NCBI GenBank assembly: GCA_963796285.1 | Contig: CAWCKW010000012.1 | Span: forward strand, 640,001-704,000 | Reading direction: 5' to 3' | DNA length: 64,000 bases | Origin: Nitrospirota bacterium | GTDB lineage: Bacteria; Nitrospirota; UBA9217 | Shown: positions 18,737 through 24,707 of the stretch, piece after piece | How positions within the stretch are numbered: the stretch's first letter is position 1 | How the letters are laid out: every line of letters begins with the position of its first letter | The notes under the pieces: generated by a model | Database searches by the model: none | What the model saw: only the letters and a program-made list of their open reading frames with translations | Told to the model about the DNA's origin: nothing | Translations under genes and position numbers: made by a program

Positions 18737-19994
18737 CTATCGTTTCCCTCTCGACTGGAAGCGGCGTTGACCGGAGGGGTGAGGGGCCGCCTGACGGGCC
18801 TGCCGGGCCCTGTCTGCCGTAAGTTTTTCTTCCGCGGATCTTCTGATCTCCCGGACATACATGCTGTCTTCGGCCCAATCCACAGGGATCTTCTGGCCGA
18901 TGAATTTCTCGATATCTTCGAGCGAATATACATACTCCTCGTCGGCGAGGCTGATTGCCTTGCCGGTCAAGCCGGCGCGGCCCGTGCGGCCAATGCGATG
19001 CACATAGTCCTCGGCGTCCTGGGGGAGGTCGTAGTTGATCACGTGGGTCACGCTTTCGACGTGGATGCCCCGGCTCGCCACATCGGTGGCCACGAGGATG
19101 GGGAGCTTGCCTTCCTTGAATTCCGCCAGGATCCGGAGCCTTTTTTTCTGCTCGATTTCGCCGGTGATAGCCTGCGCCTTCCAGTTATTGCGGTTCAGAC
19201 GCTCGACAACCATTTCTGCTGCGCGCCGGGTGTTCACGAAGATGATCGCAGCGGTTCGGTTCTTCCTTTTTGAGGATGCCGAGCAGGAGGGGTATCTTCT
19301 CATGCTTTCCCACGTGGTACAGTACCTGCTCCACCTGCTCAACCGTGACCTTCTCGGGCGTGATCGAGATCTTTTCAGGAAGGTTCATGTGCTCGTAGGC
19401 GAGCTCCATGACGCGGTAGGAGAGCGTGGCTGAGAAGAGCATGGACTGGCGCTTGGTATAAGGCTGCATTTTCTTGAGGAGAAACCGCAGATCGTCGATG
19501 AACCCCATGTCGAACATGCGGTCCGCTTCGTCAATGATCAGGTAGCGGGTTTTCTTGAGACTGTACACATGCTGCTTGAGATAATCGATGAGCCTGCCCG
19601 GCGTTCCGATAAGTACGTCCACGCCTTTCTGGAGCGTATCCATCTGTTTCTGGTAATCGATGCCGCCATACACGGCGAGGAGGCGGAAGCCGGTAAATTT
19701 TCCAAGCCGGGCGGCTTCATGGTATATCTGGTCCGCAAGCTCGCGCGTAGGTGCGATGATCAGTGCCTGGGGTGAGTCCCCGAGATCCACGGCCGGATTT
19801 CTGATCATCCGGGAGAAGAGCGAGATGAGAAAGGCCGCTGTCTTGCCTGTGCCCGTCTGCGCCTGCGCAGCAACGTCTTCTCCGCGCAGAGCCCGTGGTA
19901 TCACCGCTTCCTGCACCGGCGTGCATATGGTAAAGCCCGCGTGCTCTATTCCTTGTTTAACTTCATAGGGCACATCCAATTCACTAAAATTCAT
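18737..19994 (-). CDS. DEAD-box RNA helicase (RhlB-like); frameshift near 19260
   Basis: AQTGTGKT, PTRELA, DEAD, SAT in 19185..19994; DVASRG and HRIGRTGR in 18737..19342. Confidence 0.88.
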
Positions 19995-20482
19995 ACAGCT
20001 CCAATCTCAGTTGCGGACATTTCGTCAACAAATTATTTTGCATAGTATACCATAAGTGACGATACGAGAGAAAGAGAATTATGAAAAATCTTCCTGGAAA
20101 GTTTATTCATACTAGTTCAGATGGACTTATTGACGGCAGCTTGTTACTGAAAAAAGAATGACTCGATGATTGAGGATTTCAATGCTCCTGTATCAGAACA
20201 GAATTCAGTATACCCTGTGCGCGAGACGATAGCCATGAAGAATAGAACGGCTGTTTACGCGGCAATTATCTTCTCTTTAATCTGATGGTAACGTTAAATA
20301 TGATTTTTCAGCCGATTCTAAAACATATTTTAATAATGAGAGAGCAGATGAAAGTAAGAACAAGTTAAAATTGGTTATATTTCATGAATAACCCATTAAA
20401 TTAAGTACCATTATTAATTGTGTGGATTCAACTGTTGATAAATTGTCTAACATGCGGAAACATAATTTCTTTTATTTTCTTG

Positions 20483-20517
20483 TTGACAAAACAGACACTC
20501 TTGTAGTATATTTTGTC
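20483..20517 (+). promoter_or_regulatory. Sigma70-type promoter with overlapping inverted repeat (putative operator)
   Basis: TTGACA (20483) N18 TATATT; GACAAAA...TTTTGTC inverted repeat spans it. Confidence 0.6.
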
Positions 20518-20533
20518 CACGAGGTGAAAAAAG

Positions 20534-21100
20534 GTGCTGACAAAACTCTTCTCCTCGACCAGAGCAGAGCTTTTAGGCCTGTTCTTTAATAATCCTGATG
20601 ATCGCTTCTATTTAAGAGAGATAGCGCGCCACATCGGAAAAGATGCGGCAGGGATCAAGCGGGAGCTCGACAAACTGGTCAAGATCGGGCTTCTTGCAGT
20701 AGAGAAACGGGGCGTTCAGAAGTACTACTTCGCAAACAGGCACTCTCCGATCTTCTCGGAGATGAAGGGGTTGATCTTTAAAACCACGGGAGTCCAGGGC
20801 GCGATGAAGACCTCGCTCTCCCGACTGAAAGGAGTCAAGACCGCATTTATTTACGGCTCCTATGCCAAAGGGGCAGAAAAAGAGGACAGCAACATTAACC
20901 TCATGGTCATCGGCCAGGCGAATATCACGGAACTGAATGACATGGTCATGGGCCTTGAGGAGAAGCTTAACCGTGATATTGATTACCTTGTGTTTGATGA
21001 GCAGGAATATAAGAAGCGCAAGGAGTCGAAGGATCCCTTCATCCGGGAGTTGTTAAAAGGTAAAAAGATATTCCTGGTAGGCAAGGAAGATGAATTATAA
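20534..21100 (+). CDS. wHTH + minimal nucleotidyltransferase (MNT) protein, catalytic DxD replaced by NxN
   Basis: YLREIAR wHTH; YGSYAKG...SNINL where the family has GS...SDID. Confidence 0.8.
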   Translation: MLTKLFSSTRAELLGLFFNNPDDRFYLREIARHIGKDAAGIKRELDKLVKIGLLAVEKRGVQKYYFANRHSPIFSEMKGLIFKTTGVQGAMKTSLSRLKGVKTAFIYGSYAKGAEKEDSNINLMVIGQANITELNDMVMGLEEKLNRDIDYLVFDEQEYKKRKESKDPFIRELLKGKKIFLVGKEDEL

Positions 21101-21575
21101 AGAGCTTAAAGAAATGGGGATCGTCGAAGAGCGGACCGCCGATATCGCAGAGGTTATCGCACTGGTGACACGGGCGGAACGCGATCTGGCAACGAGCAAG
21201 GGGTTATATGATAAGGATGAAGAGTGGGCCTTTGCAGCCGCTTACCAGTCGATGGCCCGTTCAGGCAAGGCGCTCATTCTATCCGAGGGATTACGGCCAA
21301 AAGGGGTCCGGGGCAGGGATGCACAAAAGACCTTGGTAACAGCAGCGGGTGTCATCCTTGGTGATCAATACAAGAGCCTTATCAATAAGTTCGACCGGAT
21401 GAGAAGGAAATACCAGAGCTTTGTAGAAGATGCGGGCAGGATCATATCGCGGTATGAGGCAGGGCAGGCGATCAAGGATGCAGAGGAGTTTATCGCTCTC
21501 GTGAACGGACGGATTCGTGAAAAGTATTCGCAGATGTCACTGCTGAATGATGTTCCTCAGCTTGTTTCAAGATAA
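21090..21575 (+). CDS. HEPN-domain protein with degenerate active-site motif
   Basis: Overlaps the MNT stop; AERDL, WAF..AY..M, FDRMRRK helical HEPN pattern; RRKYQ in place of the R..H motif. Confidence 0.7.
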   Translation: MNYKELKEMGIVEERTADIAEVIALVTRAERDLATSKGLYDKDEEWAFAAAYQSMARSGKALILSEGLRPKGVRGRDAQKTLVTAAGVILGDQYKSLINKFDRMRRKYQSFVEDAGRIISRYEAGQAIKDAEEFIALVNGRIREKYSQMSLLNDVPQLVSR

Positions 21576-21623
21576 GGCCGCTTGGACCACAAATGCGGTA
21601 TGCCGAAAGGGGGTGGACAACTA

Positions 21624-21689
21624 ATGGCAGCCAAGAAGAAAGCAGCGAAGAAGAAAGCAACCAAGAAGAAAGCAACCAAGAAGAAGTAG
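21624..21689 (+). CDS. Lys/Ala-rich microprotein MAAKKKAAKKKATKKKATKKK (histone H1 tail-like)
   Basis: Strong RBS GAAAGGGGGTG, ATG, 21 codons, TAG, downstream GC hairpin. Confidence 0.7.
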   Translation: MAAKKKAAKKKATKKKATKKK

Positions 21690-21718
21690 CTTTTTATTGA
21701 AGTCCCTGAAGTGGGACT

Positions 21719-21749
21719 GCCGGGGGCATGAATGCCCCCGGCGCATTTT
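21719..21749 (+). terminator. Intrinsic terminator-like hairpin
   Basis: gccgggggca-tgaa-tgcccccggc followed by a short T run. Confidence 0.65.
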
Positions 21750-21845
21750 ACCCAGATAATGTTTCATAATAATATCCGGACTCATGCATCTCTTCAACGC
21801 ATCATTACTATTCTATTTCTTTTATTGAAAGGGGGTGAAGAATCC

Positions 21846-21902
21846 ATGGCGACGAAGAAAGCCCCGGCAAAGAAGGCGAAGAAGACCACAAAAAAGAAAT
21901 AA
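21846..21902 (+). CDS. Lys/Ala-rich microprotein MATKKAPAKKAKKTTKKK (histone H1 tail-like)
   Basis: Same RBS GAAAGGGGGTG, ATG, 18 codons, TAA, downstream terminator. Confidence 0.7.
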   Translation: MATKKAPAKKAKKTTKKK

Positions 21903-21942
21903 GGTGACAGATAGTTATGCATTACCAATGATTGAATCTCTG

Positions 21943-21973
21943 CCACGAAGATGGTCTTCGTGGTTTTGTTTTT
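21943..21973 (+). terminator. Intrinsic terminator
   Basis: ccacgaaga-tgg-tcttcgtgg followed by ttttgttttt. Confidence 0.75.
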
Positions 21974-22042
21974 CCATCGGTAGAGCATGCCCTTTCGATC
22001 TTCGGTTCAGGACGGTCGCCGACGCGGGAGACGAGCGTATCC

Positions 22043-22376
22043 ATGCGTAAAAAGAACTATATAAAGACTGAACGGAGTGCCAAGATCGTCCTCTGGAAAA
22101 ATCTCCTCATCGCGGCAGGAATTCTTCTTTTACTCTACTTTCTGGTTACGCGCGTCATGGGAGAGATGGGAGTGGTAAAATATTACCGGATGAAGGCGCA
22201 ATATTATGCCCTCACGGAAGAGATCGCCAAACTCAAACAGGACAACGTTCAGACTCAGGAAGGATGTAGACTCTCTCAAAAACGATCCCGCGTACCTGGA
22301 GCGGATTGCACGCGATAAACTGGGACTTGCGCGTCCTGGAGAGATAGTGTACTATTATGGCAGCCGTGAGCGTTGA
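22043..22376 (+). CDS. ftsB: Septum formation initiator FtsB/DivIC family; frameshift near 22255
   Basis: TM plus coiled coil, then LKNDPAYLERIARDKLGLARPGEIVY in a second frame. Confidence 0.75.
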
Positions 22377-22494
22377 AATTATGAAGTATCAATGAACAAA
22401 ATCCAAATAAGCTTCAAATTCCAATCATCAACATGTTTGTACTGTGGTTATCGGAATGTATTTGATATTTGGCTGGATCTTGCATCTCCTGCCC

Positions 22495-24707
22495 ATGTCT
22501 GATCATCCTCTCACATAGCCTTCGTCTGGCACATGCACCAGCCTTACTATAAGGACGATATCACGGGCTCCTATATCCTGCCCTGGGTGCGAATGCACGG
22601 CATCAAGGACTACTACGACATGCCTGCTCTCCTTGACCGATTTTCCCGATATCCACCAGACGTTCAATCTTGTTCCTTCGCTCCTCAAGCAGATCCAGGA
22701 CTACGTGGAGAACAGTGCTACGGACAAGTTCCTTACCCTGACGCTCAAGCCGGCAGCGGAACTTGATCAGGACGACAAACTGGCCTGCTGAAGAACTCCT
22801 TCATGGCGAACTGGGACACCATGATCAAGCCTTATCCTGCCTACTGGCAGCTGCTCGACCGCCGGGGCTACAGTGTTTCTCCAAACGACCTTTTGAATGC
22901 CACTCGCTACTTTACCACGCAGGACTATCTCGACCTCCAGGTCTGGTTCAATCTCACCTGGTTCGATCCGCTTTTTAAGAACAATGACCCGTTCCTCAAG
23001 GGGTTGGTGCAGAAGGGATCGGGATTCACCGAGAACGAGAAGGTGCTCCTCATCCAGAAGCAGCGCGAGGTGATGGCGCTCATCATCCCGGAGTACAAAC
23101 GGCTTGCTGAGATCGGCAGGATCGAGCTCACGACCACTCGCCTTTTATCACCCGATCCTGCCGCTCCTGTACGACACTGATCTTGCAAAGGTGGCGATTC
23201 CCGATATCCATCTTCCCGGTGAACCGCTTTGCACACCCCGAGGACGCCAAAGTCCAGATCGAGAGGGCGATGGCTTACCACGAGAAGCTCTTCGGTTCAC
23301 GGCCCGCGGGCATGTGGCCTGCCGAGGGATCGGTGGCCGAGGAGATCTCCCGATGATAGCCGATGCCGGGATACAGTGGATCGGGACGGACGAGGGAGTG
23401 CTTGCCCGTTCTCTCGGAATCCACATCGATCGCGATTTCGCCGGGGTCATGAAGAACCCCGAGGTGCTTTACAAACCCTACCTTGCGGGCAAAGGAGATA
23501 AACGCATCTCAATCGTGTTCCGCGACCATACCCTTTCCGACCTTATCGGTTTTGTGTATTCCAAATGGGATTACAAGAACGCGGTGCATGATCTGATCGA
23601 ACGTCTTCATCGCGTGCGACGCGGACTGACGAACGGTCCGCACCTGGTCTCGATCATCCTTGACGGCGAGAATGCCTGGGAATATTACCAGAACGACGGC
23701 AGGGACTTCTTCCTCTATCTCTATGAGACGGCTTAGTGGTGAGCCGGGACTCAGGTGTGTGACCGTTGGAGAATATCTCAAGGAGAATCCGGCGCAGACG
23801 AGCATTGAACATCTCCACGCAGGCTCGTGGATCAATGCAAACTATCGCGTCTGGATCGGACACGAGGAGGACAATCGGGCTTGGGACCTCCTGTCGCAGA
23901 CGCGCCGGGCGCTGACGGAGTATGCGTCAGGGGACGGGGATGCGGATGCGGACAAGATAGTGAAGGCATGGGAGGAGATCTATATCGCTGAAGGGAGCGA
24001 CTGGTGCTGGTGGTACGGAGATGACCACTTTTCCGAGAACGACGAGGAGTTTGACCTTCTCTTTAGGACACATTTAATGAACGTCTATCGCATTATCGGC
24101 CTCGATGTCCCCGACGAACTCCAGATATCCATCCTGAGCGAAGACCGTCAGTCGCTGCCAACCGTGGAGCTTACGGCATTCATCAACCCGACTATCGACG
24201 GCCAGGTAACGAATTACTTTGAATGGCTGCCTGCCGGGTTCTACGACGTGGGCCAGGGCGGGGGGGCTATGCATCGGGGCTCCTCCATCATCATGCATAT
24301 CTATTACGGTTTCGACCTCACAAACATGTTCGTGCGCCTCGACCCGAGCGGAAGCCTCAGGGATGAAAAGGTTGCCGAACTCGCGTTCTTCATTAACTTC
24401 CTGAGTCCCAAAGGCCTTGATGTGGAAGTGCGGATAGTGCCGCAGGAGCGACGGGTAAACGCCGTACTCTCCCGCAGTGAGAACGGAACCCGGAACCAGA
24501 TTGCCGCGATCCACACCGTTGCCGCGAACGATATCATCGAGCTCGCCGTACCCTTCAACCTGCTCGGTGTCAAGCCGAACGATGAGGTACATCTCGTCGT
24601 CACTGTTGAGCATGCCGGCTCCGAGGTGGAAAAGTGGCCCTACCGCGGGTATATCCGAGTTCAAGGTCCCGACCGACGACTTTGAGGCCATGATGTGGCA
24701 GGTGTAG
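22495..24707 (+). CDS. Glycoside hydrolase family 57 (amylopullulanase-like); several frameshifts
   Basis: [38 protein letters not shown] and AEGSDWCWW spread over consecutive frames. Confidence 0.85.

Follow-up and report, generated by a model that had tools for sequence, protein, structure and literature searches.

Tandem lysine-rich micro-genes with histone H1 tail-like products beside a degenerate HepT/MntA-like gene pair in uncultured Nitrospirota

Introduction

Polycationic tails resembling that of histone H1 are a known chemistry. DdbA is described as a nucleoid-associated protein in Streptomyces (PMC3643593). In vitro, DNA is bound by peptides composed of the KPAA repeats of AlgP; the protein itself localises to polyphosphate (polyP) granules, its repeat domain being needed for their spacing (PMC9239181). 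In this study we describe two tandem open reading frames, ORF1 and ORF2, that lie in a stretch of 64,000 nucleotides from a Nitrospirota bacterium (GTDB lineage Bacteria; Nitrospirota; UBA9217; assembly GCA_963796285.1, contig CAWCKW010000012.1, positions 640,001 to 704,000 of the forward strand), referred to as the window throughout, with coordinates counted from its first nucleotide. The novelty lies in a tail that makes up a whole micro-gene, in its tandem copies and in its linkage to a degenerate HepT/MntA-like pair.

In the canonical type VII toxin-antitoxin system HepT/MntA, the HEPN toxin carries an Rx4-6H RNase motif and the minimal nucleotidyltransferase (MNT) carries GSx9-13DxD. Among small basic bacterial peptides, ScvA of Coxiella burnetii has about 30 residues and is rich in Arg and Gln rather than built of A/K repeats, and we know of no operon linkage to MNT/HEPN genes for it. 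ScvA has been speculated to act in chromatin condensation, its function being described as 'not completely known' (PMC13568565, citing Heinzen et al. 1996 for the speculation).

The two micro-genes and their translation signals

The source genome (G000; 3.58 Mb in 13 contigs) carries the window on contig C12. ORF1 (21624-21689, plus strand; ATG at 21624, TAG at 21687-21689) encodes MAAKKKAAKKKATKKKATKKK, a peptide of 21 amino acids with a pI of 11.0, in which 12 residues are Lys and an (A/T)KKK repeat recurs. ORF2 (21846-21902, plus strand; ATG at 21846, TAA at 21900-21902) encodes MATKKAPAKKAKKTTKKK, with 18 amino acids, 9 of them Lys, and a pI of 10.9. The same strong Shine-Dalgarno (SD) sequence, GAAAGGGGGTG, is found exactly 8 nt ahead of each ATG (21605-21615 and 21827-21837, both plus strand). 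The original prediction had proposed two tandem Lys-rich micro-genes, each behind this ribosome-binding site, and its coordinates and Lys counts hold. Judged by sequence, both peptides are unstructured polycations; they weigh about 2 kDa, carry net charges between +9 and +12, consist of (A/T/P)KK(K) units and have no hydrophobic core, no Cys and no His.

The SD motif AAGG[GA]GGTG occurs in 70 copies on both strands of the whole 3.58-Mb genome, and at only 25 sites is it followed by ATG at 4-10 nt. ORF1 and ORF2 are among these 25, as is a third site ahead of another K-rich micro-ORF, and a fourth K-rich ORF (31-60 aa) is probably included too. Given how rare the combination is in this genome and that relatives keep both units, the observation is more than chance.

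Evidence for coding

A DNA search with positions 21090-22400 gave matches in 29 of 41 related genomes and in 23 of 24 genomes of the same family, the window's own excluded; all genomes used are metagenome-assembled genomes (MAGs) of related uncultured bacteria, and counts given here are not independent samples. In an alignment of 12 loci (71-93% identity) the conserved parts were the SD sequences, both ORFs, the hairpin stems and the terminator; the spacer of approximately 100 nt between the two units and the stretch from the ORF2 stop to the terminator could not be aligned. Both units are kept in every adequately covered relative, with SD, 8-nt spacing, ATG and stop retained, and the two frames are identical in assemblies produced by other groups and methods. 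The KKAPAKKAKK core of ORF2 is unchanged in all in-family orthologues seen, and ORF1 orthologues range from 18 to 30 aa in length. In all loci, start, SD and stop bound products of 18-30 aa, with no larger protein or second domain attached.

Coding was tested on 22 in-family loci found via flanking homology, the peptide playing no part in their selection. Loci selected by peptide pattern, which presupposes the peptide, were left out, and ORF2 was scored in 21 loci because L010 had been missed by the SD filter. Variable columns by codon position numbered 4/2/19 in the 20 codons of ORF2 and 5/3/18 in the 28 columns of ORF1. Pairwise codon differences were mostly synonymous in both, with 1250 synonymous versus 336 non-synonymous differences in ORF2 and 1347 versus 170 in ORF1. 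Aligned Lys columns have only A or G as third base, Ala, Thr and Pro codons use all four, and differences in ORF length are whole codons. The original prediction had regarded ORF1 and ORF2 as stand-alone genes and had proposed a search of relatives for conserved units of ribosome-binding site, ATG, K/A repeat and stop that vary synonymously; such units are what the relatives carry. ORF1 and ORF2 are thus very probably translated micro-genes.

The contrary view, that the locus acts untranslated as a purine-rich non-coding or protein-binding RNA, or that the opposite strand encodes a Phe/Leu-rich, type I toxin-like peptide, is scarcely credible. The AAR repeats resemble the (ARN)n sites of Hfq, and the stem of hairpin 2 is conserved in sequence and not in pairing alone. 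An (ARN)n motif would nevertheless tolerate AAY, and Lys codons are never AAY here, which indicates selection on the amino acids rather than on such an RNA motif; SD, ATG and stop are conserved on the plus strand, and no credible Rfam family was found at E up to 1. A minus-strand match to the Rfam family PK-repZ (region 20000-23000, E up to 1) reached 18.4 bits, the gathering score being 44; it is at chance level and was rejected. The antisense frames are open, share the wobble position and would give AFFLVAFFF-type peptides, but the complement of Lys/Ala/Thr codons must be open. Across the 22 loci, no conserved antisense ORF with a start and SD that could represent a type I toxin was found; first starts, lengths and ends differ in nearly every one, and the plus-strand polarity of the terminator counts against an antisense gene. 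Antisense coding was therefore rejected.

Distribution and linkage to the upstream gene pair

The ORF2 peptide pattern with at most 2 mismatches matched 26 of the 64 genomes of the order, which holds one family, and the reversed pattern used as a control matched 0; the misses were mostly one-codon variants, for example, MAAKKKAPAKK. With a shorter, exact ORF2 pattern, 24 stretches were retrieved among 185,579 species genomes, 23 of which were titled Nitrospirota, Nitrospirae or Nitrospiraceae and one was a MAG titled Betaproteobacteria.

ORF1 and ORF2 follow a gene pair encoding a protein with a winged helix-turn-helix and an MNT domain (wHTH-MNT) and a HEPN protein. A protein search with the HEPN product identified homologues in 69 of 301 Nitrospirota genomes, including 58/63 genomes of the window's family (f1), 5/6 of family f2, 3/3 of f6, 1/1 of f14 and 1/5 of f4; no genome of 29 other families had one. 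The 800 nt downstream of each HEPN orthologue were scanned for SD-preceded micro-ORFs of 12-45 codons with at least 40% Lys. At least two such K-rich micro-ORFs were present in 38 of 40 f1 genomes (three in 2 of these), the two misses being contig ends with 70 and 157 nt left. Outside f1, 9 of 10 orthologous loci from four Nitrospirota families carry K-rich micro-ORFs: three in tandem in each of the 3 loci of f6, one in each of the 5 loci of f2 and two in the single f14 locus, with none in the single f4 locus. No K-rich micro-ORFs were found downstream of two weaker, paralogous HEPN matches.

At 38-47% HEPN identity the peptides of other families differ in sequence (for example, MATKKKAAKKATKKGKC and MAIKKAKKTAKKKTTKKKKC) but retain the format, with SD, M-A-T/A-K-K, 15-22 residues, stop and hairpin. 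Because this format is kept across families at such identities, the arrangement of wHTH-MNT, HEPN and micropeptide genes is, as judged by comparative sequence analysis, a conserved module.

A single C-terminal Cys (...KKGKC, ...KKKKRC, ...KKKKC) was observed in several other-family micropeptides, at loci L039, L040 and L087 of f6 and L081-L084 of f2. Such a residue might permit disulfide dimers or modification.

The wHTH-MNT/HEPN pair

The wHTH-MNT gene (20534-21100, plus strand) encodes a polypeptide of 188 amino acids with an N-terminal winged HTH and an MNT domain. The protein matched Pfam Polbeta (2.1e-08) and NTP_transf_2 (3.5e-05), HTH families remained below cut-off, and the NCBIfam model MntA_antitoxin scored 27.1 bits against a cut-off of 60. 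The HEPN gene (21090-21575, plus strand; 161 aa; Pfam HEPN, 2.7e-09) overlaps it by 11 nt. The MNT and HEPN domain models of Pfam clear their cut-offs. In the MNT protein the DxD motif is replaced by N-I-N (GSYAKGAEKEDSNINL), giving GSx10-N-I-N in the window, and the HEPN protein has a His count of 0 and hence no Rx4-6H motif. The earlier description of the MNT-HEPN pair upstream as catalytically dead is supported in this sense, at the level of motifs.

Among the lineages linked to micro-ORFs, the aligned HEPN motif site reads RMRRKYQ (window), RMRRRTE, LMRRRRA or LMRRRRW, and the MNT dyad reads N-I-N, D-V-N, D-I-N, E-I-D or E-I-E, with D-I-D found once. The sole orthologue without micro-ORFs, locus L088 (genome G189, f4), keeps GSYAKGEEKAESDIDL (MNT GSx10DID) together with HEPN RMRVKRH (R-x5-H). 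An inverse link between micro-ORFs and intact motifs may be indicated here; with one lineage, it is a lead and not a result. Both proteins of the window are basic (pI 9.4 for wHTH-MNT and 9.1 for HEPN), which makes them unlike acidic chaperones for the peptides. We take the pair to be derived from a type VII toxin-antitoxin system by catalytic erosion and the gain of a DNA-binding domain, 'dead' as far as its motifs are concerned.

Transcription, hairpins and downstream genes

A candidate sigma-70-like promoter (20483-20512, plus strand; TTGACA, 18 nt, TATATT; 11/12 consensus) is located upstream of the wHTH-MNT gene. It is the sole strong plus-strand candidate ahead of the module in a scan based on consensus only, which returned 9 sites versus 3.1 expected in shuffles. 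The start of ORF1 is 48 nt past the HEPN stop with no terminator between them; based on this gap and on the one strong promoter ahead of the MNT gene, ORF1 is probably co-transcribed with the pair. A small conserved stem-loop (21577-21599, plus strand) is situated between the HEPN stop and the ORF1 SD and consists of GCCGC, a loop of 9-13 nt and GCGGT. Its arms are invariant in 12 loci, its loop varies in sequence and length, and the terminator scan detected no terminator-like T run after it.

Two adjoining conserved hairpins (21701-21718 and 21719-21742, plus strand) start 11 nt past the ORF1 stop and are followed by a short U tract. Jointly they fold at -34.4 kcal/mol (z -4.7), with 0/200 shuffles folding as well, and their predicted pairs are retained in 39-44 of 45 distinct sequences with few two-sided changes. 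The terminator scan did not call them because the U tract has 4 U only, and they represent at best a weak terminator, or else an RNA-stabilising or processing element. ORF2 has a canonical intrinsic terminator about 40 nt past its end (21942-21974, plus strand), with a 10-bp stem (21942-21964), a 3-nt loop and then TTTGTTTTT; the sequence CCACGAAG...CTTCGTGGTTTTGTTTTT is kept across the family. The proposal of a terminator-like hairpin after both micro-genes therefore holds in full for ORF2, and for ORF1 with the qualification just given. ORF2 might be transcribed through the weak hairpin of ORF1 or from a putative promoter of its own.

Five metatranscriptome runs contained small shares of a 2-kb stretch, and contigs of four of these were placed on the window; stretches without cover in the RNA runs carry no meaning. 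Record 13 of X18 (187 nt) covers 21594-21779 with 3 differences and 1 gap, record 21 of X20 covers 21557-21662, and records 7 and 8 of X16 cover 21644-21750. These contigs would fit a transcribed ORF1 whose hairpin is read through to some extent. The originally predicted high expression may be expected from the strong SD, with the weak contig evidence in addition. Sediment and soil metatranscriptome contigs that share the Lys repeat only were seen to run on into other units of SD, ATG, K-rich frame and stop, one of them after GAAAGGAGGTGATACATC at a depth of 49. Sediments and soils may thus hold other organisms that transcribe micro-genes of a similar kind.

The downstream neighbour of ORF2 in the window is ftsB (22043-22376, plus strand; DivIC family). 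It is split into two overlapping frames, both of which match Pfam DivIC, by one extra base near 22255; the gene is intact in a 93%-identical relative, and the split stems from an error of assembly or from a true frameshift. A helicase-like gene (18737-19994, minus strand) and a long gene (22533-24685, plus strand) likewise each comprise several overlapping ORF pieces, which suggests more frame errors in the assembly. ORF2 is followed by ftsB in 17 of 22 in-family genomes and in the other 5 by a gene for a Zincin_1 metallopeptidase (PF06262); the latter belong to five genera (L042, L043, L048, L050 and L051), and in L042 and L043 the ORF1-type micro-gene is duplicated. ftsB was not found in 10 loci of other families, and a strong terminator parts it from ORF2. 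Of the module suggested in the original prediction, to which the MNT-HEPN pair and ftsB were both assigned, the linkage to MNT-HEPN is borne out in five Nitrospirota families and ftsB is not a general part.

These data also bear on a regulatory role, in which ORF1 and ORF2 would be Lys-codon leaders or attenuators that sense lysyl-tRNA or ribosome speed and govern read-through of the hairpins. Runs of Lys codons are a plausible sensor, a hairpin follows each ORF, and the short distance between the ORF1 stop and hairpins with a weak U tract would make regulated read-through possible. However, the gene after ORF2 varies within the family, and neither ftsB nor the Zincin_1 gene occupies this position in other families; the unconserved sequence between the ORF2 stop and the terminator leaves no anti-terminator; the ORF regions have no significant structure (z -0.14 and +0.57); and A, P and T residues are kept with synonymous change, for which a Lys sensor has no need. 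We consider such a role very unlikely and have rejected attenuation on the first three of these grounds.

Family matches and related K-rich genes

The 21-aa ORF1 peptide had 0 matches among Pfam and NCBIfam families at E up to 1, HC2 (PF07382) and Hc1 (PF07432) included, and 0 among PHROGs. Up to E 10, the peptides matched no chain in the PDB, whether ribosomal or not. For longer K-rich proteins of the phylum, matches to the HC2 model stay below cut-off. In an exact look-up of seven sequences against approximately 15 billion proteins, one was present, namely ORF2 read as 25 aa from an in-frame ATG further upstream, and it was unnamed. That the genes are unannotated is judged from these seven sequences and from the family libraries. 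A literature search, with most subscription journals outside its reach, found no report of stand-alone Lys-rich micropeptide genes in Nitrospirota or behind MNT/HEPN pairs.

Lys-rich sequences of this type also occur as parts of larger proteins. A protein of approximately 201 aa encoded in the source genome (G000:C12:34901, minus strand) has a K/A-rich, H1-like N-terminal half joined to a DksA/TraR C4 zinc finger (PF01258, 3.1e-13), and in another Nitrospirota genome a K/A-rich segment lies ahead of a SWIB domain (1.4e-28). At L041:447-1105, from a different family of the phylum, the gene for a HARE-HTH protein (PF05066, 7.6e-14) is succeeded by the K-rich micro-ORF MATKKAAKKPAKKTAKKK, which starts with TTG and has a terminator of its own. 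As in the window, a Lys-rich micro-gene is thus located 3' of a winged-helix gene, the partner being HARE-HTH instead of wHTH-MNT plus HEPN.

Elsewhere in the source genome, an SD-preceded, K-rich 51-aa ORF beginning MAVKKKATKKKATKKK was observed at G000:C12:265414-265569 (plus strand), and other SD-preceded K-rich micro-ORFs at G000:C13:100549 (minus), G000:C1:38231 (plus) and G000:C13:396098 (plus). K-rich micro-ORFs of this genome include MACGTKCGTKKAVTKKATKKK and two paralogues of the type MAKSQQGSKKEVKKPKSKKK. No common partner was found in the neighbourhoods of four other K-rich micro-ORFs of the genome.

Possible function of the peptides

Composition, fusions and neighbourhood lead us to regard ORF1 and ORF2 as translated, free, H1-tail-like polycations that would bind a polyanion electrostatically, a view on which our judgement is evenly balanced; electrostatic polyanion binding as the mode of action, taken by itself, is somewhat probable. 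The peptides would act as free, diffusible counter-ions resembling histone tails, neutralising charge and compacting or bridging the polymer. Among the candidate targets chromosomal DNA would come first, the alternatives being RNA and polyphosphate. A target of DNA or nucleic acid is favoured by the fusions of K/A tails to DksA and SWIB, by DNA binding of AlgP repeats, by the winged HTH upstream and by the basic nature of the pair. The wHTH-MNT/HEPN pair itself may serve as a domesticated DNA-binding regulator or as a partner of the peptides, and not as a toxin-antitoxin system, as suggested by the loss of the HepT RNase motif and, in the window's family, of the MNT aspartates. None of the findings of this analysis points to the cell-cycle role that had also been considered.

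The same elements can be joined in a bolder way, as one chromatin-like system or split linker histone in which the eroded wHTH-MNT/HEPN complex would be the 'globular' part, binding DNA by sequence or structure, and the micropeptides its trans-acting tails. Tail dosage would then be tuned by micro-gene copy number (1-3) and by repeat length, and oligolysine micro-genes behind unrelated winged-helix genes (wHTH-MNT in the window, HARE-HTH in L041) would reflect a design of nucleoid protein used across the phylum. We regard this reading as unlikely.

Several observations weigh against free polycations acting by charge. As no hidden Markov model and no PDB chain was matched, the likeness to H1 tails is compositional only, not demonstrable homology. 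The RNA evidence consists of contigs, from which strand, ends and level cannot be read and for which DNA carry-over is possible; many further contigs match only the low-complexity Lys repeat (21629-21671), belong to K-rich genes of other organisms and were not counted. A promoter for ORF2 was not found, since 46 distinct ATG-anchored upstream regions have no conserved -35/-10 pair and share nothing beyond an element resembling GGCTTCAT that recurs loosely, and the region ahead of the ORF2 SD is unconserved. With 18-21 residues, the peptides would have to be abundant to bind DNA more than weakly. Finally, the near-invariance of ORF2 exceeds what non-specific charge neutralisation needs, which is a hint of a specific partner such as rRNA or the MNT/HEPN proteins.

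This last point keeps alive the possibility that the peptides are lineage-specific ribosome- or rRNA-associated micro-proteins that fill rRNA grooves, like bS22, bL37 and bTHX, which we nevertheless think improbable. Their size, very high pI and very strong SD are typical of such proteins, and the near-invariance of ORF2 across genera would be expected of a peptide bound at one fixed place. Ribosome structures have repeatedly revealed small basic ribosomal proteins that annotation had overlooked (bS22, bL37). On the other hand, neither Pfam or NCBIfam families nor ribosomal chains were matched in the searches above. The repeats (18-30 aa) and copies (1-2) of ORF1 vary and the number and sequence of peptides differ between families, unlike a stoichiometric component, and the HEPN-linked module was found in only 5 of 34 families sampled. 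Known ribosomal micro-proteins are Arg-rich and non-repetitive, and the A/K/T composition found here is repetitive.

A target other than DNA would be polyP or another polyanion, in which case granules would be organised by the peptides through complex coacervation. Chemically, polyP suits them as well as DNA does, and the K-rich repeat domain of the H1-like AlgP is what spaces polyP granules (PMC9239181). No polyP gene was found beside the module in any locus (genome-wide co-occurrence with ppk was not searched), and the genomic partners, wHTH here and DksA and SWIB in fusions elsewhere, point instead to DNA and transcription. We therefore hold polyP to be a doubtful target, and return to charge-based binding, with DNA as the likeliest polymer, as the preferred account.

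Implications

Gene callers and family databases overlook genes of the ORF1/ORF2 type completely, and yet the micro-genes are among the best-conserved features of their neighbourhood in several families of uncultured Nitrospirota that are widespread in soil and sediment. Provided that they are abundant polycations, the peptides would represent a class of organisers of the nucleoid or of polyanions that has so far gone unrecognised. Consisting of nothing but the tail, they would be the smallest known, and they would have to be counted in models of charge balance, chromosome compaction and polyP or RNA condensates of these bacteria. The linkage to an eroded HepT/MntA-like pair provides a concrete and testable case of a toxin-antitoxin module put to new use. 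Peptides of 18-21 aa are cheap to synthesise, and the central claim can thus be tested without a culture.

Comparison with known systems

The wHTH-MNT/HEPN pair shares with type VII HepT/MntA the order of MNT followed by HEPN, the overlapping frames and the Pfam MNT and HEPN domains. It differs in that the HEPN His is missing in all micro-ORF-linked lineages examined and that the MNT of the window's family has N-I-N; moreover, the MNT protein of the window begins with a winged HTH, and the pair has Lys-rich micro-genes downstream of it.

With regard to the peptides, ScvA of C. burnetii is the closest known stand-alone analogue. ORF1 and ORF2 resemble this developmentally regulated product in being stand-alone, very small and very basic bacterial peptides, although ScvA comes from an unrelated lineage and is set beside them by description and not by sequence. 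In composition and in their short-period (A/P/T)KK(K) repeats, ORF1 and ORF2 are like chlamydial Hc2 (HctB, PF07382), the C-terminal domains of Pseudomonas AlgP and PhaF and the N-terminal domain of Streptomyces DdbA, and the protein encoded at C12:34901, with its K/A tail and DksA zinc finger, has the architecture of DdbA. Repeat number varies among ORF1 orthologues, as it does between strains or species in Hc2 (PMC2848022) and AlgP (PMC9239181). Unlike Hc2, AlgP, PhaF and DdbA, which exceed 100 residues and bear the tail on a folded or oligomerising domain, the tail is here the whole product of 18-21 aa, and unlike H1-like proteins it is encoded by one to three micro-genes in tandem, every one of which has an SD and a hairpin to itself.

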